DNA of 64,000 nucleotides from Candidatus Kapaibacterium sp. (GTDB lineage: Bacteria > Bacteroidota > Ignavibacteria > Kapaibacteriales > UBA2268). Positions 7,897 through 55,300 of this stretch are shown here, in pieces. How positions within the stretch are numbered: the stretch's first letter is position 1; each line of letters starts with the position of its first letter. The stretch lies in assembly GCA_963665665.1 (NCBI GenBank), contig OY762428.1, positions 3,904,001 to 3,968,000 on the forward strand. The letters are read 5' to 3'. A program made the translations under genes and the position numbers. The notes beneath the pieces were generated by a model. The model saw only the letters and a program-made list of their open reading frames with translations, did no database searches and had not been told where the DNA came from.

Positions 7897-7921
7897 ATTT
7901 CAAAACCAGATCGTTCTTTTT

Positions 7922-34390: not shown

Positions 34391-34445
34391 ATGTCTTTAA
34401 ATAAATTATAGGTAATGGCAGGGAGATAAATATCATAAAACATCC

Positions 34446-34482
34446 CTTTCCACTTGCTTTCCTGCTTCTCTTTATGTAGATT
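34446..34482 (+). promoter_or_regulatory. 37-bp direct repeat, copy 2, promoter-like
   Basis: CTTTCCACTTGCTTTCCTGCTTCTCTTTATGTAGATT. Confidence 0.65.
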
Positions 34483-34540
34483 TCTATTTTAAAAAGAAGT
34501 TGCTGAAGATAAAATATTATTAACTCATATAAACGAAGAA

Positions 34541-34855: not shown

Positions 34856-34887
34856 AAATGCTTTTATGAAATAAATCTAAGCATGAT

Positions 34888-35760: not shown

Positions 35761-35819
35761 TATAATGTCTATATATCTAATAATTACAAGAATTTGTTGA
35801 AAATGTCATCAAAAAATCA

Positions 35820-36194
35820 ATGAAACTAAAAGATATAACAGGAATATTTGTTTTTTGTTTAGGCGTATTACTTACATCTTGTAATCATGATGTCAAATTT
35901 GATAGCAGAAAATGGAAGGAAAACGGAGGAGATAACATTACTCTTGATACAAGGGCTAATATGGTTAACGATTTAATTAAAAGTAAAATTCTAATAAATA
36001 AAACAATTTTTGAGATTGAAGAGCTGATCGGTTGTAGTGTTAATATAGCCAATGAAAATAATAGTCTTTATAGATATTATATTATACAGGAGAAATACGG
36101 ATGGGATATAGATCCGAAGGAAATAACCTTACTCAAAGTACATTACGATGAGAAAGGAATATCCGATTCTGTTGAACTATATAAGACTAAATGA
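35820..36194 (+). CDS. Hypothetical lipoprotein
   Basis: Lipobox LLTSC; 124 aa. Confidence 0.75.
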   Translation: MKLKDITGIFVFCLGVLLTSCNHDVKFDSRKWKENGGDNITLDTRANMVNDLIKSKILINKTIFEIEELIGCSVNIANENNSLYRYYIIQEKYGWDIDPKEITLLKVHYDEKGISDSVELYKTK

Positions 36195-37735: not shown

Positions 37736-37743
37736 TATAAATT

Positions 37744-40700
37744 ATGGCAGACAACAACGCAAATATTAAACTTGATCCGGATCCGATTAAATCGGGTATC
37801 AGGGATATTATAAATGAAATTGACCTGTTCGCGGCACTGAGCGATTCGGATAAGGATAAACTGGCGGGGCATTTCGAATTTAAAAAACTTGGCCTCGGCG
37901 ACCCGATTTCGGAAGTTGGCAAGCCTTGTAATAATTTTATCTATGTTTACAAGGGCGCTATCAGGAAAAAGATCACTGCCGACGGCATCATCCGCAGCCT
38001 TGGGCGCGTTGAGGAAAAAGGCTTTACCGGGGAAATCTCACTTGTGGATGATACGCCCTGGAATTATTCTGTTTCAGCCGCCGACCCTGATACACATTTG
38101 CTTATTTTAGATTCCGTCAATCCTGAAGTAAGGTCTGTTGCTGTTTCTGCCAAAGAAAAAATTGCCGCATCCCTGCTTGAACACAAGATCAGGGATATAT
38201 TCAAATCAAAACTTATTGATGAAGACCTGGTTAAAGATATTGCCGACAGCGCATTTATCGAAAGGCACGACAAGGGAGAAATTATATTCAACCAGGGTGA
38301 AGAAAATAATTCACTATATATTATACTTCGCGGAATAGTTGATATCTACCGCGAGAACCTGGAAAATGACGGGCTTGTTGGCGTTGCCGGACGCGACGAC
38401 ATGATTGGCGAGTACGGCGTAGTTAGCGGCAAGCAGCAGGGCTACAGGGCCATAGCAAATGAAGAAACCGTTATGGTTGAAATCCCATACCAGCTTGTAT
38501 CGCAATTATTCAGCCATGATGACGGACTAAAAGAATTATTTGAAAGCAGAATTAAAAATTTTGAAGAAGAACTTGCCAAGATAACCGGTGGCGAGGCCGA
38601 TGACGAGAATAAAAAGATTTATCCAGAATTCAAAGATACGGGCGAAAAAAAGATCAGGCATTTCCCCTGGTTGCAGCAGCACGACGAAAGTGACTGCGGC
38701 CCCGCTTGTATTACCATGATCTCGAAATTTTACGGCAAGAAGCTGAGCATGGGGCAGGTTAGGGAAATGGCAAACGTATCGGTTGAAGGTGCCTCGATGG
38801 GGGCAGTTTGCCGGGCCTCGGAAAACCTTGGCTACAGGGCAAGGCCGTATAAACTCAGCTATCCCGGCCTTAAAAACCTGAAACTGCCGGCAATTGTCCA
38901 TTGGGAAGGCTATCACTGGACTGTATTGTTTAAAATAGATCCAAAAAATATATGGCTGGCAGACCCCGGTATCGGTATCAGAAAGCTGACACACGAACAA
39001 TTTAAAAAATCATGGACACGCTACGCGATAGAGTTAGAGCCTACACCGGCATTTAAAAGCCTGAAGCCGGCAAAAACTCCGGTATTCCGCTTCGTTAAAT
39101 ATCTGCTTCCGTATAAATTCTTCTTCTTTGAAATATTTATCGGGGCATTAGTTCTGAATGTACTTGGACTGGCATCTCCATTATTCATACAAAGTATTAT
39201 CGATAATGTTATCGTATATAAAAATGTTTCATTATTAAATATGATGCTGATGGGTATGGTGCTCGTCACCTTCTTCTCTACACTTACTTCAAGCATTCAG
39301 TCCCTGGTGATGATCTACGTAACCACACGCCTGGACTTGAAGCTGCTGGCGGATTTCTATAAGCACGTGCTAAGCCTGCCTATGAAATTCTTCTACTCGC
39401 GCAAAACGGGTGATATAATAACCCGCTTCGGCGAGAATAGCAAAGTAAGGGCTATTCTCTCGGGTTCGGCAATTTCCACCGTACTCAACGTGATAATGGT
39501 GGTTGTATATATATCAATGATGTTTGCCTATAGTGCCCCGCTTTCATTTGTTGTGCTTGCATTCCTGCCATTTTTCGTGGGGCTGACTCTCGTATTTTCA
39601 CCGATAATAAAAAGAATATCCAACGATATATTTATGTCCAACAGCGACCAAAGCTCGCTGATGATAGAATCCATACAGGGTATTGAAACCATCAAGGCAA
39701 ACTCGACAGAATGGAACGTAAGGACGAAATGGGAAGATTCATACGTTAACAACGTGAACCTTTCCGCCAAGATGCAGAAAACGCAGATGCTGGCAGGGAT
39801 TATAAGCCAGGTTGTAAACACAGCGTCGAGTATAACGCTGCTCTGGTATGGCGCCCACCTTGTAATGGAAGGCAGCATATCCGTAGGTGAGTTTATGGGA
39901 TTCAACGCAATAGTCGGTTCTGTGATGGGGCCAATAATGGGGCTGGTAGGGCTTTACGATCAGTTCCAGAATGTATCTACAAGTATGGAAAGGCTGAACG
40001 ACGTTCTTGAGATGGAACCCGAGGAAAAGCCACCGGCTGAAGAAGACAAACCAAAAGTATTTATCAAGAAGGCCAAAGGTGCCCTGAACTTCAAAGACGT
40101 GAATTTCCGCTACGGATCGGAGGATTCGCCGCTGGTCATCAATAATATGAACCTGGAAGTTCCGCCCGGCAAGGTAGTTGCATTTGTCGGCAAGTCCGGC
40201 TGTGGTAAGAGCACCCTGATGAAGATGCTGGCCGGCTTTAACATACCCACCTCCGGCGAACTGATGATCGACGGCATAGACCTTAAGAATATTGATATAA
40301 TGTCGCTGCGCCGGAATATTGGCTGGGTGCTGCAGGACAGTTTCCTGTTCAGTGGTTCGGTAATTGATAATATTGCCCTCGGCGATTTAAACCCGGATAT
40401 AGATAAGGTTAGAAAAGCTGCGGTGCTTGCCGCTGCTGATGAATTTATTAAGGATTTCCCGATGGGATACAAAACCATTGTCGGAGAAAAAGGCATGGCT
40501 GTTTCCGGAGGGCAGAGACAGAGATTATGCATAGCCCGCGCCCTTTACCGCGACCCCCAGATACTGCTAATGGACGAGGCCACATCCTCGCTTGACGCCG
40601 AATCGGAAAGAAGGATACAGGAGAACCTTGATAAAATTCTCGTGGGGCGCACGGCGGTAATTATTGCCCACCGCCTCAGTACCGTTCGCAACGCCGACAT

Positions 40701-40815
40701 GATATGCTACCTTGAAGGCGGCCGCGTAGCGGAAAAAGGCACCCACAGCGAACTGTTAAAAGCCCGCGGCCTATACTATGCCATGGCCTCCGAACAAATT
40801 GGCGGAGAAGATTGA
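37744..40815 (+). CDS. Peptidase-containing ABC exporter (two cNMP-binding domains, C39 peptidase, TMD, NBD)
   Basis: Two cNMP-like repeats (FTGEISL; IFNQGE...IGEYGV), QQHDESDCGPAC, HWEGYHW, ADPG, GKSGCGKS, SGGQRQR, LMDEATS. Confidence 0.93.
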   Translation: MADNNANIKLDPDPIKSGIRDIINEIDLFAALSDSDKDKLAGHFEFKKLGLGDPISEVGKPCNNFIYVYKGAIRKKITADGIIRSLGRVEEKGFTGEISLVDDTPWNYSVSAADPDTHLLILDSVNPEVRSVAVSAKEKIAASLLEHKIRDIFKSKLIDEDLVKDIADSAFIERHDKGEIIFNQGEENNSLYIILRGIVDIYRENLENDGLVGVAGRDDMIGEYGVVSGKQQGYRAIANEETVMVEIPYQLVSQLFSHDDGLKELFESRIKNFEEELAKITGGEADDENKKIYPEFKDTGEKKIRHFPWLQQHDESDCGPACITMISKFYGKKLSMGQVREMANVSVEGASMGAVCRASENLGYRARPYKLSYPGLKNLKLPAIVHWEGYHWTVLFKIDPKNIWLADPGIGIRKLTHEQFKKSWTRYAIELEPTPAFKSLKPAKTPVFRFVKYLLPYKFFFFEIFIGALVLNVLGLASPLFIQSIIDNVIVYKNVSLLNMMLMGMVLVTFFSTLTSSIQSLVMIYVTTRLDLKLLADFYKHVLSLPMKFFYSRKTGDIITRFGENSKVRAILSGSAISTVLNVIMVVVYISMMFAYSAPLSFVVLAFLPFFVGLTLVFSPIIKRISNDIFMSNSDQSSLMIESIQGIETIKANSTEWNVRTKWEDSYVNNVNLSAKMQKTQMLAGIISQVVNTASSITLLWYGAHLVMEGSISVGEFMGFNAIVGSVMGPIMGLVGLYDQFQNVSTSMERLNDVLEMEPEEKPPAEEDKPKVFIKKAKGALNFKDVNFRYGSEDSPLVINNMNLEVPPGKVVAFVGKSGCGKSTLMKMLAGFNIPTSGELMIDGIDLKNIDIMSLRRNIGWVLQDSFLFSGSVIDNIALGDLNPDIDKVRKAAVLAAADEFIKDFPMGYKTIVGEKGMAVSGGQRQRLCIARALYRDPQILLMDEATSSLDAESERRIQENLDKILVGRTAVIIAHRLSTVRNADMICYLEGGRVAEKGTHSELLKARGLYYAMASEQIGGED

Positions 40816-41592: not shown

Positions 41593-42513
41593 ATGGAAGA
41601 GACATTTAACGAACAATCGACTGCTGTAATGACAAAACCGCGAAAAACTGTTCTAGCGTTTTTGTTTTCGCTATTACTTCCCGGGTTCGGGCAAATTTAC
41701 AATGGACAGCTAATAAAAGGTATTGTGTTTTTTGTTTTAATTCATTCTGTTACTTATATATTTGCCCTAACACGTGCTGCAACATCATTATATGGCCTGA
41801 TTGCATGGTTTGTACTCGAAATAGCGCTTCTGATTTTTATAATCTATGACGGAGTAAAGAACGCCAGGCGACAAAAGCAGTATATCTTAAAACCATATAA
41901 CAGGTGGTACTATCATTTACTTTTTGCTATAGGGATGGTTAGTATTTTAATTTTTTTAGACATTTCTTTTTACAGTTTAGGTATAAAAAATTTTAAGATT
42001 ACCGGCTCCGGTAACAAACCGACTTTTCAAATTGGCGACCGTGTAGTTGCAGATGAGAAAGCATACAACAACAAGAAACCTGATTATGGCGATATTGTTG
42101 CCTTTTCAAGGCCTGACGGAAAGATATGGTTTTTTAGAATTGTAGGGCTTCCATTTGATATGATTGATTTAAATGATAATAATGTGTGTATTAACGGCAA
42201 GCCCGGTAAGGAAAAATTTATTTCGGAGACGAAAAGTGATGGCGTTCCGGTTCTTGAATTTGAAGAAGAGCTTCCAAACGGGCACAAATACCTGATCTAC
42301 AAAATGAAATATCCTTATGACAGTTCAAAAGCAAATATAAAACAAATCTTTGTGCCTCATGGAAGTTATTATGTAATGGGAGACAATCGTAACAGATCAT
42401 TAGATAGCAGGCATATTGGTTTCATAGATGAAGATAGTATCATAGGGCGCATTATTTATACTTATTGGGGAGACTCATTCGACAGAATAAATATTGATTT
42501 CAGAAACAAATAA
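41593..42513 (+). CDS. Signal peptidase I (S26) homologue with N-terminal TM bundle, catalytic residues atypical
   Basis: PT..IGDRV, RIVGLPFD, YYVMGDNRNRSLDSRHIG; LLPGFGQIYNG N-terminus. Confidence 0.85.
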   Translation: MEETFNEQSTAVMTKPRKTVLAFLFSLLLPGFGQIYNGQLIKGIVFFVLIHSVTYIFALTRAATSLYGLIAWFVLEIALLIFIIYDGVKNARRQKQYILKPYNRWYYHLLFAIGMVSILIFLDISFYSLGIKNFKITGSGNKPTFQIGDRVVADEKAYNNKKPDYGDIVAFSRPDGKIWFFRIVGLPFDMIDLNDNNVCINGKPGKEKFISETKSDGVPVLEFEEELPNGHKYLIYKMKYPYDSSKANIKQIFVPHGSYYVMGDNRNRSLDSRHIGFIDEDSIIGRIIYTYWGDSFDRINIDFRNK

Positions 42514-42578
42514 TATTTGCTGTTAAACTTATAATCCGGCCATCAACCTGGTCGATATGAAATATGATTTAACTTTTA

Positions 42579-42646
42579 CGAACTGATAAAAGCCCGCGGC
42601 CTTTACTACGCCATGGCTTCCGAACAGCTGGGCGGCGAAGATTGAG
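42579..42646 (+). repeat. Diverged duplicate of the last 68 bp of the ABC exporter gene (40749-40816)
   Basis: 60/68 identical; encodes ELIKARGLYYAMASEQLGGED* versus ELLKARGLYYAMASEQIGGED*. Confidence 0.92.
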
Positions 42647-42654
42647 TGGTCGGG

Positions 42655-43998
42655 TTATTTCTCGTTCAATTCAAAATTATCCAGGAATTTCTGCAGGAAG
42701 TAATTATCTTCAAAATCATCATCGGGGCACAATATCTGCAAAATATATATTTTATTTCCATTTTCAACTGACAGGGTATACTCGTATAATTCATTTTCCC
42801 TTTCAATAATAACTTCCCGTGCCGGGTATTTATCATGAAATAAAATTTCATCTTCATCATCAATTTTATTATCAGTGCCGGCAATTTTTGTTTTTTGGAT
42901 AAACTGGTCAATCATCGGGTCAGGGTTTGTACCGTCGGGCATGCCGATGGAAGTTATATAATAAGCTTTATTATTATCGCCCTTTATAGGAACCGAAGCA
43001 TGATTATAGAAGAATACATCACCGCCTATGCTTTTCCGGTTTTCTGTTTCTTCAGGAGCTGTCGGAAACAAAGCTGAAAATCCCGCAGGAATAAAATCAA
43101 ATTTCTCCCATTTCACGAAATCCCTTCCTGTCAGTTCAAGTTCCTCATCGTATCCCACGGACCTGACGGCGTAGCCTTTCATTTTCAAAATATTCAGAAT
43201 TCCCTCATCCCCGGCAAGGTGTGCTGCCCCGACAACTGCAAAGCATGGCATTTTTTGGGATAGCTCGTCTATTCTCTCAGCCATTTTCCTGTTTCTTTTT
43301 CCAAGCAAAACTGATGACATCTCGCTGCCAGTTCTGGATTTTATAATCCTTTCATGCAGGCCGCCAATATCCTCATCAATGTAGTACTCCAGGTTTGCTT
43401 CGGATTCCTCAAGGTAATTGTCAGGGTTTTTAAAGAAATTATAATAGAATGACATTGGTATTTTATCAATAGTACCAATCTGATCGCCCAATTCTTCAAG
43501 GCCCTCAATTATCAGTCCCTTCTCCTCTGCTTTTAACTTCAGAAATCCATCTATAGTTTCCGGAAAATCGCTTTTCTGTATAACCTTGCGAATAAAATTA
43601 TAAACAGCAAAAAGCCTGAATTGGCCGAACAGGTCAGGCTCCTTTTTAAGATATTTTTTAATTGCCGCTGCCATTGGATTATAAATAGAATCGGGGAGAA
43701 TATTGATCAGCCTCTCGTTATTATCAAGATACATCGCACGCCCGGCAGCATCCGTTTCCTCGTCGCTTAGGCTAAGTTCCGGTGAAAACACTTTACATTT
43801 TCCAAGGCAAATCAGAACAGAATCGCCAAATTCAAAAGCCCTTTTATCCTTCACGTGCATACTGCCGAATACATAAGATTTGTGGTTTTGGTTTTCCTTC
43901 GAAATTTCCCAGAGCAGAGAGTTCTCAATTTCATCAGATAATAACAATCCTGAAGAAAAAATAATCAGTACGAATATTGTTTTGAAAAGTTGATTCAT
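42655..43998 (-). CDS. TraB/GumN family protein with C-terminal extension
   Basis: SLLWEIS...SYVFGSMH, GLE...Q, LLGKRN..M, VVGAAHL.G..GI; signal peptide from MNQLFK. Confidence 0.9.
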   Translation of the reverse strand: MNQLFKTIFVLIIFSSGLLLSDEIENSLLWEISKENQNHKSYVFGSMHVKDKRAFEFGDSVLICLGKCKVFSPELSLSDEETDAAGRAMYLDNNERLINILPDSIYNPMAAAIKKYLKKEPDLFGQFRLFAVYNFIRKVIQKSDFPETIDGFLKLKAEEKGLIIEGLEELGDQIGTIDKIPMSFYYNFFKNPDNYLEESEANLEYYIDEDIGGLHERIIKSRTGSEMSSVLLGKRNRKMAERIDELSQKMPCFAVVGAAHLAGDEGILNILKMKGYAVRSVGYDEELELTGRDFVKWEKFDFIPAGFSALFPTAPEETENRKSIGGDVFFYNHASVPIKGDNNKAYYITSIGMPDGTNPDPMIDQFIQKTKIAGTDNKIDDEDEILFHDKYPAREVIIERENELYEYTLSVENGNKIYILQILCPDDDFEDNYFLQKFLDNFELNEK

Positions 43999-44494
43999 GT
44001 AATTCAATTTTATAATTTCTAATTTCAAATTTCCTGATCAATAGAATTTAGTATTTATAAGCCCTGCCAATCAATTGAAATCAGGGTGCTTAGTGTACTT
44101 TAATTCAGAATTCTTTTTTTAAATATAATCCTGCAATATTTATATCTCAATTATTATCAAATTTTAGTATTAGTAACATACAAAATCATACAATATTTCA
44201 TACAAATTTAACAAAAGGAAAGAAAAAAGTATAATAATTTGGGTTAAATATTGGCCATCGTATTGTTTTAAAGGAATAATCTTTTTTAGCCTGTGCCCTG
44301 AAGGTGACAGAAACAGATTATTCAAAAATATTCAGCCTGTCCGGCAATGGATAGTCTTTGTGCAAGTTTATCTAAATTATAACTACCACAGCTTATCAGT
44401 ATTTCGTATCTTTGTACTTTCCGAAAATTTGAAAAACGTATGAATTGAAAATAGATAAAATGAAGCAGATCAAGATATTTTGAAAGGATTTTAA

Positions 44495-46417
44495 ATGGCA
44501 AAGTTTCAGTTTAAGCCGTTCGAGGAAATGACCGAAGACGATTACAGGGAGATCGGCTTTAAATCCGGGCTGGAAGTGCATCAGCAGCTTCTTACCGAGA
44601 AAAAACTATTCTGCCGCTGTCCTGCAGGCAGGTACTCCAAAGAATATAACGCGGAAATTCTCCGCCACATGAGGCCCACGCTTTCCGAGCTTGGCGAATA
44701 TGACGGCACAGCCCTCATGGAATTTAAAACAAAGAAAAATATTACTTACAGAATTAACCGCGAAACAGTATGTACCTACGAAATGGACGATACACCGCCT
44801 TTCGAAATAAATGAACAGGCTTTGGACATCGCTTTTGAAATTGGTATGCTGCTTGACGCAACGCTGGTGGACGAGCTTCATATTGCCAGGAAGCAGTATC
44901 TGGACGGATCAATTCCTACAGGGTTTCAGCGTACAGCTATTACATGCGTTAACGGTGAAGTTCCTTACAAAGACAGAATTATTCACATTATTCAGATGTC
45001 GATAGAAGAGGACTCATGCCGTGAAGCTTCTGATTTGGGCCATGAGAGAATTTATCTGACCGACCGGCTTGGAACTCCCCTGATTGAAACGGTTACTGCT
45101 CCTGAAATGAAAACACCTCAGGAAGTTGCCGAAGTAAACCAGATATTGCGTAAGCTGGTACGTTCAACAGGGCACGTTCGTACTGGTATTGGCGCCGGCC
45201 GCCAGGATGTTAACGTCAGCGTTACAGGTGGAACAAGAATCGAGATCAAGGGCGTTTCAAGAATTCCTTATATTCCACGCCTGACTTATAACGAAGCAAT
45301 GAGGCAGTGGAACCTGTTATTGCTCAGGGATGAACTTCATTCCCGCGGAATTACGGAAGAAACTTTCAAAGCTGATTATACTGACGTAACAAAAGCACTT
45401 AAGAAAACTCTTTACAAACCTGTTCACCAGGCTATTGCAGATGGTAAAACAGTTAACTGCGTAGCGCTGAAAGGATATAAAGGACTTCTTAACTGGCAAA
45501 CACAGACAGATACTTATTTCTCGAAGGAAATATCCGACAGGGTAAGGGTGATTGCATGTATTTCTGAAATACCAAACATTCTTCATTCGGATACCCCGAT
45601 GGACTCCATTTCCACAGCCGAATGGCAAAAGCTCAGGAAACAGATGGAAGCCGATGAAAATGATACTCTCGTTTTGGTTTGGGGATGCCCGGGCGATGCA
45701 GAGACAGGCGCTAAAGAAATTATTATCCGCGCTAAGGAAGCAACAATTGGTATTCCTTCGGAAACCAGGCAGGCTCTGAGGGACGGAACAAATGGCTTTG
45801 AACGTATACTGCCGGGCCCGGAAAGAATGTATCCGGATACCGACCTTCCGCCAAAACGCATAACAGAAGACAGAAAAGCAAGACTCAGGGAAGGACTCCC
45901 GAAATATTTCTGGGACAACATGAAATGGTATTACGAACTCGGTATTCCTGAAGATACAATCGAGCCTCTCTCCTATTCAAAATATGCTCCTCTGTTCGAA
46001 AAACTTGTGAAAGAGCACGAAGTCAGCCCGGTTCTTGCTGCCGTGGTATTAGTTCAAAATATCAAGCGACTGAAAAAACAGGGACTGGATATATTGAAAC
46101 TGACCGACGACATCCTTGAAAATATTTTAATCCTGAATAAAGACGGCCTGCTGCCGGCGGATGCCATTCTTTTTGCAATGCGGGATGCTGTTAAAACAGG
46201 AAAATTTGACAAGGAAATGATCCCCGAAGCAATAAAAGAAGATCAGCTTGAAAAAGAATTTGGCGCAGCTGACAGGAAATTCGGCGACATGGAGATAATC
46301 AATCCGCAAAGCAAACACAAAATCATGGCAGGAATAATGATGGAAGGGCTTCGCTACAGGATTGAAGCAGCTAAAGTTAATGAATTTTTGAAAAATAAAC
46401 TGAACGGGGAGGGCTGA
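44495..46417 (+). CDS. gatE: Glu-tRNA(Gln) amidotransferase subunit E (archaeal type)
   Basis: GLEVHQQL..KKLFCRCP, RPTLSELGEYD, DGSIPTGFQRT, DRLGTPLIE, RQDVNVS..GG.RIEIKGV, ILHSD insertion domain, PGPERMYPDTDLP; 640 aa, longer than GatB. Confidence 0.93.
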   Translation: MAKFQFKPFEEMTEDDYREIGFKSGLEVHQQLLTEKKLFCRCPAGRYSKEYNAEILRHMRPTLSELGEYDGTALMEFKTKKNITYRINRETVCTYEMDDTPPFEINEQALDIAFEIGMLLDATLVDELHIARKQYLDGSIPTGFQRTAITCVNGEVPYKDRIIHIIQMSIEEDSCREASDLGHERIYLTDRLGTPLIETVTAPEMKTPQEVAEVNQILRKLVRSTGHVRTGIGAGRQDVNVSVTGGTRIEIKGVSRIPYIPRLTYNEAMRQWNLLLLRDELHSRGITEETFKADYTDVTKALKKTLYKPVHQAIADGKTVNCVALKGYKGLLNWQTQTDTYFSKEISDRVRVIACISEIPNILHSDTPMDSISTAEWQKLRKQMEADENDTLVLVWGCPGDAETGAKEIIIRAKEATIGIPSETRQALRDGTNGFERILPGPERMYPDTDLPPKRITEDRKARLREGLPKYFWDNMKWYYELGIPEDTIEPLSYSKYAPLFEKLVKEHEVSPVLAAVVLVQNIKRLKKQGLDILKLTDDILENILILNKDGLLPADAILFAMRDAVKTGKFDKEMIPEAIKEDQLEKEFGAADRKFGDMEIINPQSKHKIMAGIMMEGLRYRIEAAKVNEFLKNKLNGEG

Positions 46418-46418
46418 T

Positions 46419-47810
46419 ATGTCTGTAAGTGAAGATTATAAAGGCTACTGGGGCAAAGTGCTCGAAACCCTGCAAAAATTTGAAGCAAAAGTATGGAGCG
46501 ACGTTGAAATATTTACTAATGCGGATGACCACTATATCGGCCTTATTCTGCCACGTTCCGAAACTGCTGACGACCTGCACGTTGTTTTGAAGCTTCGTAC
46601 CGGATATAATGTTGGCATAGCAGTTGAAAAAATTACTGATATTAAAATAAACGGCCGTAAGATTGCCAATTATAAAATTCCGGAACAGGAATTCCCGACA
46701 GATCCTGTGAAACCGAGAGTAAAACTTTTCGGTACCGGCGGAACTATTGCCAGCCGCCTGGACTATCGTACAGGCGCGGTTATACCGGCATTCTCGCCCG
46801 GCGAACTTTATGGTTCGGTGCCGGAACTTGCAGATTATTGCAACCTTGAAACAGAAAAATTATACGGCGTTTTCAGCGAGAATATGGGCCCGGACCAGTG
46901 GAAAGGTACTGCCGAAGCCATTGCAGCCGAAATTGAAAAAGGCGTGCAGGGAATTGTTATCGGGCATGGGACAGATACAATGCACCATACCGCTGCAATT
47001 CTTTCATTCATGATCCAGAACTCGCCGGTTCCTATCGTGATGGTAGGTTCGCAGCGTTCCAGCGACAGGCCGTCGTCCGATGCCGCGCTAAACCTGATCC
47101 ACTCGATAAAAACAGCCTCCGAGTCCGATATAGCTGAAGTAATGGTTTGCATGTTCGGCCCGACTTCAGACACTTACGGCCTGCTGCACCGCGGTACAAG
47201 AGTTAGGAAAATGCACTCCAGCTACCGTTCTACTTTCCGTACAATCGGCGATATTCCTATCGCAATGGTTGACAAGGAAAACATCACACCCATAAGGAAT
47301 GACTACAAACGCAGAAGGCACGACAAAGACTTTATTCTGAAGCCTTATTTCGAGGAAAAAGTAGGGATTCTCTATTATTATCCCAACATGCAGCCTGATA
47401 TGGTGGACATGATGATTGATAATGGCTATAAAGGTATCGTATTTGCCGGAACAGGACTCGGCCATGTGAACAAACCGCTTTACGCAGCGCTGAAACGCGC
47501 TCAGGACAAGGGTGTTGCTGTTTACATGACTGTTCAGACCCTCTGGGGTTACGTGCAGATGTACGTTTACGAAACAGGGCGCGAAATGATGGAACTCGGC
47601 GTTGTGCCTACAGCCAACATGCTTCCCGAAGTTGCTTACATGAAACTTGCATGGGCGCTCGGCCAAACCGACGACCTTGAGAAAGTAAAAGATATAATGC
47701 TCACTCCGGTTGCAGGAGAAATAACCGAACGCGAACCGAGCAACGGTTACCTGATATACCAGGGCGGCATTCCCGAAGTGGAAGAATTTATTTCCAAATA
47801 CAGGAAATAA
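46419..47810 (+). CDS. gatD: Glu-tRNA(Gln) amidotransferase subunit D (asparaginase-like glutaminase)
   Basis: N-terminal VLKLRTGYNVG domain, TGGTIASRLDYRTGAV, SENM, HGTDTM, GSQRSSDRPSSD, GTRVRKMHSS.R, MLPEVAYMKLAW. Confidence 0.95.
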   Translation: MSVSEDYKGYWGKVLETLQKFEAKVWSDVEIFTNADDHYIGLILPRSETADDLHVVLKLRTGYNVGIAVEKITDIKINGRKIANYKIPEQEFPTDPVKPRVKLFGTGGTIASRLDYRTGAVIPAFSPGELYGSVPELADYCNLETEKLYGVFSENMGPDQWKGTAEAIAAEIEKGVQGIVIGHGTDTMHHTAAILSFMIQNSPVPIVMVGSQRSSDRPSSDAALNLIHSIKTASESDIAEVMVCMFGPTSDTYGLLHRGTRVRKMHSSYRSTFRTIGDIPIAMVDKENITPIRNDYKRRRHDKDFILKPYFEEKVGILYYYPNMQPDMVDMMIDNGYKGIVFAGTGLGHVNKPLYAALKRAQDKGVAVYMTVQTLWGYVQMYVYETGREMMELGVVPTANMLPEVAYMKLAWALGQTDDLEKVKDIMLTPVAGEITEREPSNGYLIYQGGIPEVEEFISKYRK

Positions 47811-47831
47811 CAAAAACCGCCATATATTTAT

Positions 47832-47869
47832 ACTCATCCGATGATTTCTTTCGTCGGGTGAGTTTTTTT
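47832..47869 (+). terminator. Intrinsic terminator of the gatED operon
   Basis: ACTCATCCGATGA-loop-TCGTCGGGTGAGT followed by a T-run. Confidence 0.85.
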
Positions 47870-47950
47870 ATTATTCAACAGCTCGAAACATTAATACCGT
47901 ACTTCCGCGTAAAAACCTAAGAATTAGTAAAAGCGCTGGCGTTTGCAAAT

Positions 47951-48311: not shown

Positions 48312-49571
48312 ATGAAGAAACTAATTTTACTGGCAGCAATTTTATCATTTTTATTTTCTGCCGGGGCAAGGGCACAGGCCGATTCCCTCGTGATGTGGAC
48401 TTATGGAAATACAAGGTTTTCAACACAGCCGCGAGTACATCCCAACGGCAATGTTTTCATCGGAGATAATCAGGCAAATATAATGGAAATTGACGGTTTA
48501 ACAGGAGAACTTATAAGAAAAATAGCTTTGCCTGCCGGAACAACAAGTTTGGAATTGTCTTTGGATGGTTCGAAAATGGCGGCGGCAGGATATATAATTG
48601 ATGTAGAAAGTGGAGAAGTAATTAAAGCACATCCTGAAGCTTACAAGATAAAATTTCTCCATCCTGACAATTCTAAAATTATTTATGCACCTTTTAATCA
48701 GGCAGAATACAACTTCTTTGTATGGGATATTGAAACCGGGGAATCAGAAAGTTTTGATATCGGAAAAAAATTAATAACTGCGCTGGAAGTATCAAATAAC
48801 GGCAAATTCTTTGCAATTGCAACATTGGAAACCGGATACGATGACGAAGAACACACCCACTTCTACCTTTTCGATGCGCAAACAATGCAGTTTATTAAGG
48901 AACTGGAAGACTATCCTGACAATGGCAGAAGAATTGAGTATATTCAGTTTTCTGAAAATGCTAAGTATGTATGTTATGGGCAAAACAGGTTAGGTTCAAT
49001 AAAAGGTTCATTTTTCTTAACGGAAGCACCGTATTCCAAGTGGATGTTAATAACAGAAACAACCCCGCCTAAAGGTTTTTGGGGTTTAGGTCTGATTGAT
49101 GATAATTATGTTTTTGCAACATCAGATAATGGGCTTGATTTTTATTCAATTATATGGGATATTGATAATGAAAAAGAAATATATTTTTCATCAGAATATG
49201 GTTCTTCAAATCCGCTATACAACTATGCAGCTAAAAATATAATTGTACACGATAATGGAAATCGTACTATTGTCGCCCTTGATTTCGAAAAAATCCTGAG
49301 TACCGTAGGCGTTAAAGATGAGTTGGATACAAACGCGTTCAGGGCTGAATACTCGGGCGGCATACTGACAATAAACGGACTTGAAAGCCAAAGCGTAGAA
49401 ATCAACCTTACAATTAATAATATTCAGGGGGAAGTGGTTTTTTCTCAAAATATCGCTGCTGTTCATGGCTCGCAAATATCGTTGTCCGTATCATTGCCCT
49501 CGGGGGTTTATATTGCCCGAATCAGGACGGGAGAAAATAATTATTCCTCAAAATTTTTAGTGGTGAACTAA
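48312..49571 (+). CDS. Secreted WD40/YVTN-like beta-propeller protein with T9SS-like tail, copy 1 (block type AAAA)
   Basis: Signal peptide ...ARA-Q, repeats such as LELSLDGSK, LEVSNNGKF, IQFSENAKY, WDIE; tail LPSGVYIARI...SKFLVVN. Confidence 0.85.
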   Translation: MKKLILLAAILSFLFSAGARAQADSLVMWTYGNTRFSTQPRVHPNGNVFIGDNQANIMEIDGLTGELIRKIALPAGTTSLELSLDGSKMAAAGYIIDVESGEVIKAHPEAYKIKFLHPDNSKIIYAPFNQAEYNFFVWDIETGESESFDIGKKLITALEVSNNGKFFAIATLETGYDDEEHTHFYLFDAQTMQFIKELEDYPDNGRRIEYIQFSENAKYVCYGQNRLGSIKGSFFLTEAPYSKWMLITETTPPKGFWGLGLIDDNYVFATSDNGLDFYSIIWDIDNEKEIYFSSEYGSSNPLYNYAAKNIIVHDNGNRTIVALDFEKILSTVGVKDELDTNAFRAEYSGGILTINGLESQSVEINLTINNIQGEVVFSQNIAAVHGSQISLSVSLPSGVYIARIRTGENNYSSKFLVVN

Positions 49572-49739
49572 CTCCGCCCCCGCTTTCAGCGCTGACAGGT
49601 TCAACATTGAAAGCGGCGGCTGGAAAAATGAAGAAAAAGCAGGGAATATTGAGACCAAATTGAATTTGATATGTTACTAACTATATATAAATAATACTAC
49701 CCGATGGTAGTAATGTAAAAACAATTATAGGGCTTTACC

Positions 49740-51008
49740 ATGAAAAAACTAATTTTACTGGCAGCGTTTTTATCATTCTTATTTTCTGCCGGGGCAAGGG
49801 CGCAGGCCGATTCCCTCGTGATGTGGACTAATAATGAGGTTCAATTCCACTCCATGCCTGCAATTCATCCCAACGGGAACGTGTTGATACGAAGCCATTA
49901 CGATATCCTGGAAATTAACGGTTTAACCGGCGAAATTATGAGGAATATCAATGTTCCTTTTACAGGTATTGTTAGCGATTGGATTGATATTTCTAAGGAT
50001 GGCACACGTTTCGTAGCTTGCCGGAAGATCGTTAATTTTGAGACAGGGGAAATTATCGGAGAACTGCCGGAGGAAACTGCAATTGTAAAATTTCTCCATC
50101 CTGACAATTCTAAAATTATTTATGCACCTTTTAATCAGGCAGAATACAACTTCTTTGTATGGGATATTGAAACCGGGGAATCAGAAGGTTTTGATATCGG
50201 AAAAAAATTAATAACTGCGCTGGAAGTATCAAATAACGGCAAATTCTTTGCAATTGCAACATTGGAAACCGGATACGATGAAGAAGAACACACCCACTTC
50301 TACCTTTTCGATGCGCAAACAATGCAGTTTATTAAGGAGCTTGAAGACTACCCTGCCAATGGCAGGACAATTGAGTATATTCAGTTTTCTGAAAATGCTA
50401 AATATGTATGTTATGGGCAAAACAGGTTAGGTTCAATAAAAGGTTCATTTTTCTTAACGGAAGCACCGTATTCCAAGTGGATGTTAATAACAGAAACAAC
50501 CCCGCCTAAAGGTTTTTGGGGTTTAGGTCTGATTGATGATAATTATGTTTTTGCAACATCAGATAATGGGCTTGATTTTTATTCAATTATATGGGATATT
50601 GATAATGAAAAAGAAATATATTTTTCATCAGAATATGGCTCTTCAAATCCGCTATACAACTATGCAGCTAAAAATATAATTGTACACGATAATGGAAATC
50701 GTACTATTGTCGCCCTTGATTTCGAAAAAATCCTGAGTACCGTAGGCGTTAAAGATGAGTTGGATACAAACGCGTTCAGGGCTGAATACTCGGGCGGCAT
50801 ACTGACAATAAACGGACTTGAAAGCCAAAGCGTAGAAATCAACCTTACAATTAATAATATTCAGGGGGAAGTGGTTTTTTCTCAAAATATCGCTGCTGTT
50901 CATGGCTCGCAAATATCGTTGCCCGTATCATTGCCCTCGGGGGTTTATATTGCCCGAATCAGGACGGGAGAAAATAATTATTCCTCAAAATTTTTAGTGG
51001 TGAACTAA
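49740..51008 (+). CDS. Beta-propeller/T9SS paralogue, copy 2 (BAAA)
   Basis: N-terminal block like copy 3, remainder like copy 1. Confidence 0.85.
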   Translation: MKKLILLAAFLSFLFSAGARAQADSLVMWTNNEVQFHSMPAIHPNGNVLIRSHYDILEINGLTGEIMRNINVPFTGIVSDWIDISKDGTRFVACRKIVNFETGEIIGELPEETAIVKFLHPDNSKIIYAPFNQAEYNFFVWDIETGESEGFDIGKKLITALEVSNNGKFFAIATLETGYDEEEHTHFYLFDAQTMQFIKELEDYPANGRTIEYIQFSENAKYVCYGQNRLGSIKGSFFLTEAPYSKWMLITETTPPKGFWGLGLIDDNYVFATSDNGLDFYSIIWDIDNEKEIYFSSEYGSSNPLYNYAAKNIIVHDNGNRTIVALDFEKILSTVGVKDELDTNAFRAEYSGGILTINGLESQSVEINLTINNIQGEVVFSQNIAAVHGSQISLPVSLPSGVYIARIRTGENNYSSKFLVVN

Positions 51009-51175
51009 CTCCGCCCCCGCTTTCAGCGCTGACAGGTTCAACATTGAAAGCGGCGGCTGGAAAAATGAAGAAAAAAAGCCGGGAATAATGAGACCAAATT
51101 GAATTTGATATGTTACTATGAATACAAAAACTACCCCTTATGGTAGTAATGTAAAAACAATTATGGGGCTTTACC

Positions 51176-52444
51176 ATGAAAAAACTAATTTTACTGGCAG
51201 CAATTTTATCATTTTTATTTTCCACCGGGGCAAGGGCGCAGGCCGATTCCCTCGTGATGTGGACTAATAATGAGGTATCATTCCACTCCATGCCTGCAAT
51301 TCATCCCAACGGGAACGTGTTGATACGAAGCCATTACGATATCCTGGAAATTAACGGTTTAACCGGCGAAATTATAAGAAATATCAATGTTCCTTTTACA
51401 GGCTATATTAGCGATTTGATTGATATTTCTACGGACGGCACACGTTTCGTAGCTTGCCGGAAAATCGTTGATTTCGAGACAGGGGAAATTATCGGAGAAC
51501 TGCCGGAGGAAACTGCATACGTTAAATTTTTTCATCCGAATAATAATTTGTTGATCTACAAAATAAATACTCTGGAAAATAACCGCTGGTTTATCATGAA
51601 TATTGATCAGGGTAATTCAATTATAGTTGAAAATTTGTCGAATTATACAACAGCCTTTGAAGTATCACTTGACGGCAGGTTTTTAGCACTTGCAACATTA
51701 GAAAACTACGACACAGAAGATGAATCTACCTACTTCTACCTTTTCGATGCGCAAACAATGCAGTTTATCAAGGAGCTTGAAGACTACCCTGCCAATGGCA
51801 GAAGAATTGAGTATATTCAGTTTTCTGAAAATGCTAAATATGTAAGTTATGGACTTAATCATTCTGGCTCACCAAAAGCTGCCATTTTTTTAACGGAAAC
51901 GCCGTATTCAGGGTGGATATTAAAAACTGAAACAACTCCGCCCAAAGGATTTTATGGATTAGGTATGATTGGTGATAAATATGTTTTTGCAACATCAGCT
52001 ATTGGAAATGATTTTCATTCAATTATATGGGATATTGATAATGAAAAAGAAATATATTTTTCATCAGAATATGGTTCTTCAAATCCGCTATACAACTATG
52101 CAGCTAAAAATATAATTGTACACGATAATGGAAATTATACATTAGTCGCCCTTGATTTCGAAAAAATCCTTAGTACCGTGGGCGTTAAAGAAGAAGAGGA
52201 TGCAAACGCGTTCAGGGCTGAATACTCGGGCGGCATATTGACAATAAACGGGCTTGAAAGCCAAAGCGTAGAAATCAACCTTACAATTAATAATATTCAG
52301 GGGGAATTAGTATTTTCTCAAAATATTGCTGCTGTTCATGGCTCGCAAATATCGTTGCCCGTATCATTGCCCTCGGGGGTTTATATTGCCCGGATCAGGA
52401 CGAGAGAAAATAATTATTCCTCTAAATTTTTGGTGGTTAATTAA
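51176..52444 (+). CDS. Beta-propeller/T9SS paralogue, copy 3 (BBBB)
   Basis: Alternative sequence in all four variable blocks. Confidence 0.85.
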   Translation: MKKLILLAAILSFLFSTGARAQADSLVMWTNNEVSFHSMPAIHPNGNVLIRSHYDILEINGLTGEIIRNINVPFTGYISDLIDISTDGTRFVACRKIVDFETGEIIGELPEETAYVKFFHPNNNLLIYKINTLENNRWFIMNIDQGNSIIVENLSNYTTAFEVSLDGRFLALATLENYDTEDESTYFYLFDAQTMQFIKELEDYPANGRRIEYIQFSENAKYVSYGLNHSGSPKAAIFLTETPYSGWILKTETTPPKGFYGLGMIGDKYVFATSAIGNDFHSIIWDIDNEKEIYFSSEYGSSNPLYNYAAKNIIVHDNGNYTLVALDFEKILSTVGVKEEEDANAFRAEYSGGILTINGLESQSVEINLTINNIQGELVFSQNIAAVHGSQISLPVSLPSGVYIARIRTRENNYSSKFLVVN

Positions 52445-52612
52445 CCCCGCCCCCGCTTTCAGCGCTGACAGGTTCAACATTGAAAGCGGCGGCTGGAAAA
52501 ATGAAGAAAAAGCAGGGAATATTGAGACCAAATTGAATTTGATATGTTACTAACTATATATAAATAATACTACCCGATGGTAGTAATGTAAAAACAATTA
52601 TAGGGCTTTACC

Positions 52613-53872
52613 ATGAAGAAACTAATTTTACTGGCAGCAATTTTATCATTTTTATTTTCTGCCGGGGCAAGGGCACAGGCCGATTCCCTCGTGATGTGGA
52701 CTTATGGAAATACAAGGTTTTCAACACAGCCGCGAGTACATCCCAACGGCAATGTTTTCATCGGAGATAATCAGGCAAATATAATGGAAATTGACGGTTT
52801 AACAGGAGAACTTATAAGAAAAATAGCTTTGCCTGCCGGAACAACAAGTTTGGAATTGTCTTTGGATGGTTCGAAAATGGCGGCGGCAGGATATATAATT
52901 GATGTAGAAAGTGGAGAAGTAATTAAAGCACATCCTGAAGCTTACAAGATAAAATTTCTCCATCCTGACAATTCTAAAATTATTTATGCACCTTTTAATC
53001 AGGCAGAATACAACTTCTTTGTATGGGATATTGAAACCGGGGAATCAGAAAGTTTTGATATCGGAAAAAAATTAATAACTGCGCTGGAAGTATCAAATAA
53101 CGGCAAATTCTTTGCAATTGCAACATTGGAAACCGGATACGATGACGAAGAACACACCCACTTCTACCTTTTCGATGCGCAAACAATGCAGTTTATTAAG
53201 GAACTGGAAGACTATCCTGACAATGGCAGAAGAATTGAGTATATTCAGTTTTCTGAAAATGCTAAGTATGTATGTTATGGGCAAAACAGGTTAGGTTCAA
53301 TAAAAGGTTCATTTTTCTTAACGGAAGCACCGTATTCCAAGTGGATGTTAATAACAGAAACAACCCCGCCTAAAGGTTTTTGGGGTTTAGGTCTGATTGA
53401 TGATAATTATGTTTTTGCAACATCAGATAATGGGCTTGATTTTTATTCAATTATATGGGATATTGATAATGAAAAAGAAATATATTTTTCATCAGAATAT
53501 GGTTCTTCAAATCCGCTATACAACTATGCAGCTAAAAATATAATTGTACACGATAATGGAAATCGTACTATTGTCGCCCTTGATTTCGAAAAAATCCTGA
53601 GTACCGTAGGCGTTAAAGATGAGTTGGATACAAACGCGTTCAGGGCTGAATACTCGGGCGGCATACTGACAATAAACGGACTTGAAAGCCAAAGCGTAGA
53701 AATCAACCTTACAATTAATAATATTCAGGGGGAAGTGGTTTTTTCTCAAAATATCGCTGCTGTTCATGGTTCGCAAATATCGTTGTCCGTATCATTGCCC
53801 TCGGGGGTTTATATTGCCCGAATCAGGACGGGAGAAAATAATTATTCCTCAAAATTTTTAGTGGTGAACTAA
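52613..53872 (+). CDS. Beta-propeller/T9SS paralogue, copy 4 (AAAA)
   Basis: Protein identical to copy 1; one synonymous GGC/GGT difference seen near 53770. Confidence 0.85.
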   Translation: MKKLILLAAILSFLFSAGARAQADSLVMWTYGNTRFSTQPRVHPNGNVFIGDNQANIMEIDGLTGELIRKIALPAGTTSLELSLDGSKMAAAGYIIDVESGEVIKAHPEAYKIKFLHPDNSKIIYAPFNQAEYNFFVWDIETGESESFDIGKKLITALEVSNNGKFFAIATLETGYDDEEHTHFYLFDAQTMQFIKELEDYPDNGRRIEYIQFSENAKYVCYGQNRLGSIKGSFFLTEAPYSKWMLITETTPPKGFWGLGLIDDNYVFATSDNGLDFYSIIWDIDNEKEIYFSSEYGSSNPLYNYAAKNIIVHDNGNRTIVALDFEKILSTVGVKDELDTNAFRAEYSGGILTINGLESQSVEINLTINNIQGEVVFSQNIAAVHGSQISLSVSLPSGVYIARIRTGENNYSSKFLVVN

Positions 53873-54040
53873 CTCCGCCCCCGCTTTCAGCGCTGACAGG
53901 TTCAACATTGAAAGCGGCGGCTGGAAAAATGAAGAAAAAGCAGGGAATATTGAGACCAAATTGAATTTGATATGTTACTAACTATATATAAATAATACTA
54001 CCCGATGGTAGTAATGTAAAAACAATTATGGGGCTTTACC

Positions 54041-55300
54041 ATGAAAAAACTAATTTTATTCACAGCAATTTTATCATTTTTATTATCTGCCGGGGCAAGG
54101 GCACAGGCCGATTCCCTCGTGATGTGGACTTATGGAAATACAAGGTTTTCAACACAGCCGCGAGTACATCCCAACGGCAATGTTTTCATCGGAGATAATC
54201 AGGCAAATATAATGGAAATTGACGGTTTAACAGGAGAACTTATAAGAAAAATAGCTTTGCCTGCCGGAACAACAAGTTTGGAATTGTCTTTGGATGGTTC
54301 GAAAATGGCGGCGGCAGGATATATAATTGATGTAGAAAGTGGAGAAGTAATTAAAGCACATCCTGCAGCTTACAAGATAAAATTTCTCCATCCTGACAAT
54401 TCTAAAATTATTTATGCACCTTTTAATCAGGCAGAATACAACTTCTTTGTATGGGATATTGAAACCGGGGAATCAGAAAGTTTTGATATCGGAAAAAAAT
54501 TAATAACTGCGCTGGAAGTATCAAATAACGGCAAATTCTTTGCAATTGCAACATTGGAAACCGGATACGATGACGAAGAACACACCCACTTCTACCTTTT
54601 CGATGCGCAAACAATGCAGTTTATTAAGGAGCTTGAAGACTACCCTGCCAATGGCAGAAGAATTGAGTATATTCAGTTTTCTGAAAATGCTAAGTATGTA
54701 AGTTATGGACTTAATCATTCTGGCTCACCAAAAGCTGCCATTTTTTTAACGGAAACGCCGTATTCAGGGTGGATATTAAAAACTGAAACAACTCCGCCCA
54801 AAGGATTTTATGGATTAGGTATGATTGGTGATAAATATGTTTTTGCAACATCAGCTATTGGAAATGATTTTCATTCAATTATATGGGATATTGATAATGA
54901 AAAAGAAATATATTTTTCATCAGAATATGGTTCTTCAAATCCGCTATACAACTATGCAGCTAAAAATATAATTGTACACGATAATGGAAATTATACATTA
55001 GTCGCCCTTGATTTCGAAAAAATCCTTAGTACCGTGGGCGTTAAAGAAGAAGAGGATGCAAACGCGTTCAGGGCTGAATACTCTGGCGGGATACTGACAA
55101 TAAACGGGCTTGAAAGCCAAAGCGTAGAAATCAACCTTACAATTAATAATATTCAGGGGGAAGTGGTTTTTTCTCAAAATATTGCTGCTGTTCAGGGTTC
55201 GCAAATATCGTCGCCCGTATCATTGCCCTCGGGGGTTTATATTGCCCGGATCAGGACGGGAGAAAATAATTATTCCTCAAAATTTATCGTGGTTAACTAA
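54041..55300 (+). CDS. Beta-propeller/T9SS paralogue, copy 5 (AABB)
   Basis: First half like copies 1 and 4, second half like copy 3. Confidence 0.85.
   Translation: MKKLILFTAILSFLLSAGARAQADSLVMWTYGNTRFSTQPRVHPNGNVFIGDNQANIMEIDGLTGELIRKIALPAGTTSLELSLDGSKMAAAGYIIDVESGEVIKAHPAAYKIKFLHPDNSKIIYAPFNQAEYNFFVWDIETGESESFDIGKKLITALEVSNNGKFFAIATLETGYDDEEHTHFYLFDAQTMQFIKELEDYPANGRRIEYIQFSENAKYVSYGLNHSGSPKAAIFLTETPYSGWILKTETTPPKGFYGLGMIGDKYVFATSAIGNDFHSIIWDIDNEKEIYFSSEYGSSNPLYNYAAKNIIVHDNGNYTLVALDFEKILSTVGVKEEEDANAFRAEYSGGILTINGLESQSVEINLTINNIQGEVVFSQNIAAVQGSQISSPVSLPSGVYIARIRTGENNYSSKFIVVN

Follow-up and report, generated by a model that had tools for sequence, protein, structure and literature searches.

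How does a complete operon for GatDE, an amidotransferase regarded as the archaeal route to Gln-tRNA(Gln), come to lie in a bacterial chromosome, and what could it do there? The question is raised by a 64,000-nt stretch of the genome of Candidatus Kapaibacterium sp. (assembly GCA_963665665.1, contig OY762428.1, positions 3,904,001 to 3,968,000), hereafter the window, in which the open reading frame (ORF) list places two consecutive genes on the forward strand: gatE (44495-46417; ATG start, 640 aa), for the tRNA-dependent kinase/transamidase subunit, and gatD (46419-47810; ATG start, 463 aa), for an asparaginase-type glutaminase subunit with the GatD N-terminal domain. According to passages of two reviews from 2021 and 2022 (PMC8007984, PMC9499178), GatDE is found in archaea only. 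A preliminary description of the locus, made from the DNA letters, had read it as an old and domesticated cross-domain transfer of translation machinery. Our results show that the pair at 44495-47869 is a true GatE/GatD pair and that the bacterial GatDE branch to which it belongs is large, old and so far little-discussed.

The identity of the two proteins was assessed with hidden Markov models, and the comparison that had been proposed for telling GatE from GatB and GatD from asparaginase separated them in both cases. GatE scored 523 bits with the NCBI equivalog NF003107 (cut-off 456), in an alignment spanning model positions 2-625 of 630, and 438.8 bits with TIGR00134 (cut-off 319.55). The six matching GatB models gave 48-130 bits against cut-offs of 315-680, the best of them reaching 130.5 bits where 338 is needed; all being below cut-off, a GatB identity for the first gene was rejected. 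GatE also lacks the GatB-type YFYPD motif. For GatD, TIGR02153 and NF003217 both gave 509.6 bits (cut-offs 324 and 310), and the type I asparaginase model TIGR00519 scored lower, at 388.1 bits. Since the GatD models score higher and a GatD_N domain is present, a plain type I asparaginase was likewise rejected for the second gene. Indeed, Pfam finds GatD_N at residues 29-76 (PF18195, 47.5 bits, cut-off 25.7) together with the Asparaginase N and C domains, and in GatE a GatB_N catalytic domain interrupted by an AspRS-like GAD insertion (PF02938, 24.7 bits, cut-off 23.4; residues 312-398, window positions 45428-45688, forward strand). The motifs from which the pair had first been recognized are all in the translations: RPTLSELGE, RKQYLDGSIPTGFQRT and ILHSD in GatE, and TGGTIASRLDYRTGAV, HGTDT and SQRSSDRPSSD in GatD.

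Comparison with solved structures led to the same families. By phmmer, the best matches are archaeal GatE and GatD chains: GatE matches the Pyrococcus abyssi chain 1zq1_C (E 1.2e-96), with the alignment continuing through the AspRS-like insertion, and the M. thermautotrophicus chain 2d6f_C (E 2.3e-89), aligned over residues 16-636; its identity to the solved archaeal GatE chains is 33-39%. GatD matches P. abyssi 1zq1_A at E 5.1e-119, solved asparaginases following at E 1e-40, and in the alignment the segments GTGGTIASR, HGTDTM, QRSSDRPSSDA and VRKMH are identical between the host and P. abyssi proteins. GTGGTIASR, HGTDTM and VRKMH are motifs of the asparaginase-type active site, which has a Thr nucleophile and for which a passage of PMC2330236 describes a Thr-Asp-Lys triad. 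The AlphaFold2 model of GatE (predicted local distance difference test score 91.1), which is helical over residues 458-638, has 1zq1_C as its best fold match (E 2.9e-49, TMt 0.84) and also matches 2d6f (E 8e-44), with GatB at ranks 4-17 and local matches to AspRS chains at ranks 18-32. For the C-terminal tail, which in the GatE family is helical and YqeY-like and holds the D-loop of the tRNA, Pfam gave no GatB_Yqey match at E <= 0.001, and the YqeY fold match was weak (rank 38, E 0.41). An alignment of 119 GatE sequences has 57 positions with an identity of 95% or more. The defining features tested thus place both proteins in the GatE and GatD families, the tail domain being partly confirmed.

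If the pair is GatDE, where does it come from? A search of 50%-identity representatives returned 646 proteins at E <= 1e-30, with the scores dropping in a step from relatives at 40-59% identity to the archaeal level of 31-37%. In a FastTree tree of 120 rows the window falls in a 42-row clade with support 100. In an IQ-TREE tree of 64 rows, with the host GatB as root, it falls in a 33-row clade with a Shimodaira-Hasegawa-like approximate likelihood ratio test (SH-aLRT) value of 100, which includes all 16 bacterial-labelled rows and the window. The sister of this bacterial clade is a cluster with a Heimdallarchaeota-labelled protein (98), and the next branch is a clade with a Thorarchaeota-labelled one (99). 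Wherever a clade member carries a taxon label, the label is a bacterial one, namely Kapabacteria, Ignavibacteria, Bacteroidota, Calditrichia, KSB1, Krumholzibacteria, Latescibacteria, Aminicenantes, Desulfaltia, two Deltaproteobacteria, CSSED10-310 and one 'Clostridiales'. The clade also has a motif of its own, as had been suspected from the host sequence. In its 42 rows this reads RKQYLDGSIPTG (Q134 in 41/42, Y135 in 41/42, I140 and P141 each in 42/42), and in the 77 other GatE representatives RK[T/I]V[I/V]DGSN[T/V][S/T]G. The best reading of these trees would be that bacteria acquired the enzyme long ago from an Asgard-like archaeon. The trees are of GatE, with archaeal GatD sequences in none of them; most outgroup rows carry no taxon label (cluster look-ups on 30 representatives named the taxon of 6), labels of metagenome-assembled genomes are fallible, the root is a single GatB and composition is uneven.

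The distribution of the operon speaks to what happened after such a transfer. We searched samples of 151 genomes from the host's class, 401 from its phylum, 21 from its order and 41 from its family, the last with one genome per genus. GatE was above cut-off in 32 of the 151 class genomes and in 16 of the 401 phylum genomes, all 16 from the host's class. Within the family it was above cut-off in 30 of 41 genomes, and in 32 at E <= 1e-60. As the class, phylum and order samples happened to include only GatE-negative members of the host's family, the host had seemed to be the sole GatE holder of its order, with an operon gained within the class; the family sample overturned this, both by the 32/41 genera with GatE and by the grouping of their sequences. 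The 21 rows from the family stand together in a GatE tree of 48 sequences (SH-aLRT 89), the window among them, as expected under vertical descent. A vertical inheritance of gatDE in the host's family, after a transfer that would be old and domesticated as first proposed, is therefore supported by the sequences compared.

Beyond these samples, a protein search returned thousands of GatE relatives. The best 120, at 62-70% identity, bear Kapabacteria, Ignavibacteria, Bacteroidota or FCB labels where they are named, and are often annotated as GatE already. A scan of one genome per species gave 340 close relatives, the best 80 of which include Ignavibacterium, Melioribacter, Stygiobacter and Kapaibacterium labels. 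Among 37 relatives whose surroundings were fetched, gatD lies downstream of gatE in 35, and the remaining two stretches end at a contig end. In these relatives GatD is 71-82% and GatE 56-65% identical to the window's proteins; GluRS identity is 45-64% in a class sample that overlaps them.

One explanation that would dispose of the question altogether is that the operon got into the sequence by a chimeric assembly or by contamination with archaeal DNA, or that it was imported from an archaeon very recently. Its base composition would fit this, gatE having 44.6% and gatD 47.2% GC against a mean of 39.7% (standard deviation 4.1) for long ORFs. However, asnS, which is near-universal in the class and vertically inherited, is equally GC-rich (48.6%), and glnS is GC-rich as well. 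The host genome is a single contig of 5,458,198 bases, 99.48% complete. A 12,655-nt contig of runs X1 and X3, which come from one sample, spans 42500-47863 with 0 differences, and contigs of a second study (runs X4 and X5), with few differences, include both genes and join the upstream ORF to the start of gatE. The upstream join, one of the two flanks at which a chimera had been thought possible, is thus bridged by two studies; on the downstream side the short-read contigs of four runs end at 47863, at the onset of repeated DNA. Moreover, the close relatives (62-70%) are all bacterial-labelled, against 33-39% identity to solved archaeal GatE, and the operon is inherited across the host's family. 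An artefact or a recent import is thus very unlikely, and we treat the operon as a real locus of a bacterial chromosome. A synteny test for the insertion itself gave no definable orthologous empty site, the upstream flanking ORF having matches of only 25-28% identity in 6 of 10 family genomes.

What the enzyme could do depends on the other routes to Gln-tRNA(Gln) and Asn-tRNA(Asn), which we surveyed in the host genome, as had been suggested, for glnS, gatCAB and asnS. The host has a GlnRS (756.5 bits, cut-off 425.8), which gives it a route to Gln-tRNA(Gln) other than GatDE. It also has an AsnRS (498.8 bits) and two AsnB-type asparagine synthetases; AsnA was not found in the genome. In the class, AsnRS is present in 147 of 151 genomes. 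One relative has glnS and gatE on opposite strands and only about 1.4 kb apart (G061:C45:508058-512933); in the host and everywhere else the two genes are distant from each other.

The tRNAs were compared with the recognition rules described in a passage of PMC2330236, by which archaeal GatDE reads A1-U72 and the D-loop, and bacterial GatCAB reads U1-A72 in tRNA-Gln and tRNA-Asn. Both host tRNA-Gln copies and tRNA-Asn carry U1-A72, a pair limited to these tRNAs, and A1-U72 occurs in tRNA-Trp only. The preliminary description had supposed that the enzyme either co-evolved with the host tRNA-Gln or took on a new amidation substrate. The tRNA did not shift toward A1-U72, both copies being U1-A72; if tRNA-Gln is a substrate of GatDE here, it is the enzyme that has adapted. 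On a separate matter of tRNA genes, ARAGORN reports two tRNA-Cys(GCA), 91 and 93 nt long, next to a tRNA-Ser(GCU) outside the window (G000:C1:1891309-1892135). Both are the same as the tRNA-Ser in variable arm, T arm and 3' end but have disrupted acceptor and D stems, and are probably partial copies, not working tRNAs.

The remaining route, GatCAB, looks eroded in the host when its sequences are set beside those of relatives. GatC was not found with TIGR00135, with PF02686 or by tblastn using GatC of five relatives; in the order it is found in 17 of 21 genomes. Host GatA scores 471.9 bits, under the 481.1 cut-off, where 18 relatives of the order score 558-614, and host GatB scores 442.8 bits, where the 11 family genomes without GlnRS score 568-608. 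The two genes (gatA at G000:C1:45632-46951, gatB at G000:C1:1626063-1627472) are open frames, about 100-150 bits below those of relatives, and low-scoring GatB also occurs in four further family genomes (G516, G519, G526 and G534). The host GatAB could work without GatC or could be in decay.

We then combined by hand, from separate searches, the GatDE, GlnRS and GatB pattern across the 41 family genomes, 31 of which are at least 90% complete. Both GatDE and GlnRS are present in 26 genomes, and in these GatB is absent from 20, scores 386-443 bits in five (the host included) and 529 bits in one. GatDE without GlnRS occurs in six, with GatB at 577-608 bits in five and absent in G549, a genome 87% complete. 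Seven genomes have neither, with GatB at 568-585 bits in six and absent in one (91% complete), and the two with GlnRS only both lack GatB. All 11 full-score GatB of the family are thus in GlnRS-less genomes, and in 28 of 28 GlnRS-bearing genomes GatB is lost or altered. GatDE, on the other hand, is kept in 26 of these 28, and GlnRS is found in 26 of the 32 GatE-positive genomes. In the class, GlnRS is present in 31 of 32 GatE-positive against 46 of 119 GatE-negative genomes, and GatB is missing from 10 of 32 against 5 of 119. As the genomes are kin, and the family GatE tree, which is poorly resolved, gives only two independent pairs on supported branches (sign test p = 0.5), these co-occurrence counts are descriptive and not proof.

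A last element is the origin of the substrate. The host has one GluRS, which shares 60-64% identity with its counterparts in six family genomes; in five of these there is a single GluRS, a GatB and no GlnRS. The GluRS of those five must mischarge tRNA-Gln, because there is no GlnRS, one GluRS and a GatB, and from their likeness we infer that the host GluRS is also non-discriminating. The residue aligned with Arg358 of Thermus thermophilus GluRS, which we take to be a mark of discriminating enzymes, is an Arg in the host. As a marker this position was set aside as uninformative, 21 of 27 genomes lacking both GlnRS and GatE also having Arg. Separately, two GluRS genes were seen in the families of class relatives such as G005, G038 and G074 (f9), G029 (f20), G065 (f23), G004 (f8) and G041 (f21), and the GluRS copy fetched from them has Tyr or His where T. 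thermophilus has Arg358. A split into GluRS1 and GluRS2 is known in Helicobacter, and by analogy these families may have a similar one.

Taken together, these observations suggest, with somewhat better than even confidence on our part, that the operon encodes a working Glu-tRNA(Gln) amidotransferase adapted to bacterial U1-A72 tRNA, which acts beside GlnRS and seems to have taken over from GatCAB. By homology GatDE would be an alpha2-beta2 enzyme in which GatD frees ammonia from glutamine or asparagine, and GatE phosphorylates the glutamate on Glu-tRNA(Gln) and then amidates it to Gln-tRNA(Gln). The genes would have entered Bacteria long ago from an archaeon near the present Asgard lineages, and would have spread or been inherited through several, mostly FCB-group, phyla. 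The enzyme would read the bacterial U1-A72 tRNA-Gln and not the archaeal A1-U72, on Glu-tRNA(Gln) supplied by the single, presumably non-discriminating GluRS; an amidotransferase would still be needed to clear this Glu-tRNA(Gln) despite GlnRS, and GatDE has seemingly assumed that role of a GatC-less, diverging GatCAB. Substrate, GluRS specificity and take-over are what we infer; the sequences themselves show the identity of the genes, their intact motifs, the fold, the conservation and distribution of the operon, its place in the trees, the first base pairs of the tRNAs and the condition of GatCAB. GatDE looks the fitter candidate for the role in this genome: it is intact, strongly conserved and above the genome mean in codon make-up (GC at third codon positions, GC3, 44% for gatE and 49% for gatD; genome mean 37%). 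For GatCAB, on the other hand, GatC was not found, GatA and GatB are low-scoring and their GC3 is below the mean (gatB 33%, gatA 36%).

Several observations weigh against this reading. Through GlnRS, at 756.5 bits, the host can make Gln-tRNA(Gln) independently of GatDE, and it has no tRNA-Gln with A1-U72, the pair recognised by the characterised archaeal enzyme. GatE is dispensable, since 9 of the 41 family genomes are without it. Host gatA and gatB remain open frames and GatB retains the YFYPD motif, for which reason GatAB may still work. All five well-covered GatDE-positive, GlnRS-less family genomes retain a full-score GatB, and no clear 'GatDE only' genome was found among the 41 (G549, without GatB, is 87% complete); GatDE is thus never clearly seen supplying Gln-tRNA(Gln) alone. 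Finally, the presumably non-discriminating GluRS has Arg at the Arg358-aligned position, although this marker proved uninformative.

The same five genomes bear on what we rank as the main rival explanation, namely that GatDE has a changed or widened job: it might also amidate Asp-tRNA(Asn), like bacterial GatCAB, or act on another acyl-tRNA, or serve under particular conditions as an asparagine-fed, glutamine-sparing route, and be retained for some purpose served by neither GlnRS nor GatCAB. We consider this unlikely. Their full-score GatB would fit a GatDE unable to replace GatCAB. GatDE also persists in 26 of the 28 GlnRS-bearing family genomes, GatB of the 28 being absent in 22, low in five and intermediate (529 bits) in one. 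The archaeal first-pair cue for rejecting tRNA-Asn (PMC2330236, in the passage used above) is unavailable in the host, where tRNA-Asn and both tRNA-Gln carry U1-A72, and beside the catalytic DGS..GFQRT motif the bacterial clade has the near-invariant I140 and P141 instead of N and T. However, there is no visible need for Asp-tRNA(Asn) amidation, the host having an AsnRS, like 147 of the 151 genomes of the class, and two AsnB; the domains with which archaeal GatDE binds tRNA-Gln appear to be retained, the tail being partly confirmed; and the co-occurrence counts come from kin, with two independent pairs and p = 0.5. A related reading, to which we give an equally low probability, is that GatDE is no spare copy of the glutamine route but was re-tuned to a role of its own after the Asgard-like transfer. 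It would have switched to U1-A72, which is common to tRNA-Gln and tRNA-Asn, and would be kept once GlnRS arrives while GatCAB is lost, maybe with a wider use of substrates or donors, such as Asp-tRNA(Asn) or an asparagine-fed route that spares glutamine.

The losses raise a further explanation, in which the operon is a dispensable leftover, useful at one time but made redundant by GlnRS, in the course of being lost and without a present role. GlnRS, AsnRS and AsnB do complete both direct routes, and losses are common, GatE not being found in 9 of 41 family and 119 of 151 class genomes. Against this, both frames are intact with every conserved motif present, and GatD is 71-82% identical across families in which GluRS is only 45-64% identical. 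The overlap-style junction is intact, as are the ribosome-binding site and the terminator, the GC3 of gatDE lies above the genome mean and that of gatA and gatB below it, and the operon is present in 26 of 28 GlnRS-bearing family genomes. We regard a leftover as improbable, somewhat more so than a changed job. A working amidotransferase that reads U1-A72 tRNA-Gln beside GlnRS is the explanation that we favour.

The control elements of the operon are as follows, all on the forward strand. A possible ribosome-binding site, AAGGA, was seen by direct inspection at 44484-44488, 6 nt 5' of the gatE ATG. The gatE stop codon TGA (46415-46417) is followed by a single T and the gatD ATG at 46419. The 1-nt gap between the genes had been pointed out before together with a ribosome-binding site, which is GGGGAGGG at 46406-46413, within the 3' end of gatE and spaced 5 nt from the ATG. 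The clean bacterial-style terminator, also recognized at first sight, is at 47832-47870: a stem of 13 pairs with a 6-nt loop (47832-47863), then a T run, beginning 22 nt past the gatD stop. About 260 nt upstream of gatE, a sigma-70-like match (44208-44235, TTAACA-16 nt-TATAAT) fits 11 of 12 hexamer positions and is a lead only: because the region has 17 such matches against 8.5 +/- 3.5 in shuffles, a single promoter site is weak evidence. A look for expression found no RNA run listed as containing the locus.

The surroundings are bacterial. The three genes by which the neighbourhood had been called bacterial, ddl (28749-29783), a FliA-type sigma factor gene (6213-6992) and dnaX (59962-61743), are present in the window, although none is adjacent to the operon; the best named relatives of DnaX, at about 50% identity, are labelled Kapabacteria or Kapaibacterium. 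The genes directly beside the operon encode signal peptidase I, two proteins of type I secretion and proteins sorted by the type IX secretion system (T9SS), and other bacterial genes around encode a PorZ-like protein, guanine deaminase, TatD, TyrRS, Der and DinB. The DnaX labels and the T9SS domains together place the host in the Kapabacteria/Ignavibacteria part of the Bacteroidota (FCB) group. No mobility gene abuts the operon in the window, in agreement with the preliminary description. The nearest oddity, about 10 kb upstream of gatE, is an ORF with a Fic domain (33125-34390), weakly similar to 'mobile mystery protein B' and next to the patch where GC is lowest in the window (29.7% at 34001-36000); 33125-36000 may be a small foreign island. 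At 36335-40815 lie an HlyD-type adaptor and a 1023-aa exporter of the HlyB/bacteriocin type, an ATP-binding cassette protein whose first ~300 residues fall outside transporter models. At 6213-9870, genes for an FlhF-like SRP54-type GTPase, an FlhG/MinD-like ATPase and the FliA-type sigma factor are consecutive, T9SS sorting domains being in use in the same genome. Downstream of the operon, 48312-55300 encodes a tandem array of five paralogues, each about 420 aa long and equipped with a signal peptide and a T9SS sorting tail, whose C-terminal halves are near-identical. The DNA from about 47990 on is repeated in the genome, since short-read contig depth there is 5 to 10 times that of the operon.

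How new is this? The genes are already named in public annotation, and it is the biology, not the finding of the ORFs, that is of value: as the preliminary description had anticipated, many of these proteins bear the name GatE at NCBI and JGI. We found no description of bacterial GatDE in the literature, although subscription journals and supplementary files, which lie outside the search, may hold a mention. No paper joining GatDE with Ignavibacteri* was found, nor the phrase 'bacterial GatDE'. Among the matches listed, none joined GatDE with Calditrich*, Latescibacteria, Aminicenantes, KSB1 or Asgard, none used GatD with Ignavibacterium, Melioribacter, Kapabacteria or Chlorobi, and among those on GatDE since 2016 none was, by its title, on bacteria with GatDE. 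The word 'amidotransferase' is absent from the Melioribacter genome paper (PMC3534657).

The bacterial clade, a large one, breaks two premises of the co-evolution arguments that the reviews of 2021 and 2022 build on an archaea-only GatDE, the pairing of GatDE with an archaeal tRNA-Gln and the absence of GlnRS, as it occurs in cells with U1-A72 tRNA-Gln and alongside GlnRS. It offers a natural experiment in an amidotransferase changing its tRNA identity rules, and a dated case of a translation component passing from archaea, apparently Asgard-like ones, to bacteria. The host family shows all stages of swapping one Gln-tRNA route for another, which can be compared genome by genome. The finding should surprise specialists and is directly testable, and the host is one instance of something visible in databases.

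How does the host system compare with those already known? With archaeal GatDE (1ZQ1, and 2D6F with tRNA-Gln) it shares two subunits in one operon, the domain order (GatD_N and asparaginase in GatD; cradle, AspRS-like insertion, helical part and tail in GatE), the motifs and the fold. It differs in its bacterial host, in a GatE identity of 33-39% and in a clade of its own marked by RKQYLDGSIPTG. Whereas archaeal GatDE reads A1-U72, as a passage of PMC2330236 describes, the host tRNA-Gln is U1-A72; and whereas archaeal species all lack GlnRS according to a passage of PMC9499178, the host has GatDE and GlnRS together. Bacterial GatCAB resembles it in that GatE is a paralogue of GatB, in that GatB is the next-best fold and, by homology, in chemistry. 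In contrast to GatCAB, the host GatDE has an insertion domain, an asparaginase-type GatD instead of the amidase GatA, and no GatC; the host's own GatA and GatB are located elsewhere in the genome. Type I L-asparaginase (AnsA) corresponds to the GatD core (TIGR00519, 388.1 bits), from which GatD is set apart by its GatD_N domain, its better scores with GatD models and its translational coupling to gatE. The closest parallel in circumstance is in Bdellovibrio, Deinococcus and Thermus, which retain GatCAB beside AsnRS and GlnRS, the question there being asparagine (abstract of PMC4206432). In these bacteria, as in the host, an enzyme of the indirect route is kept despite the direct routes, but what the host keeps is GatDE, and its asparagine is covered by two AsnB.

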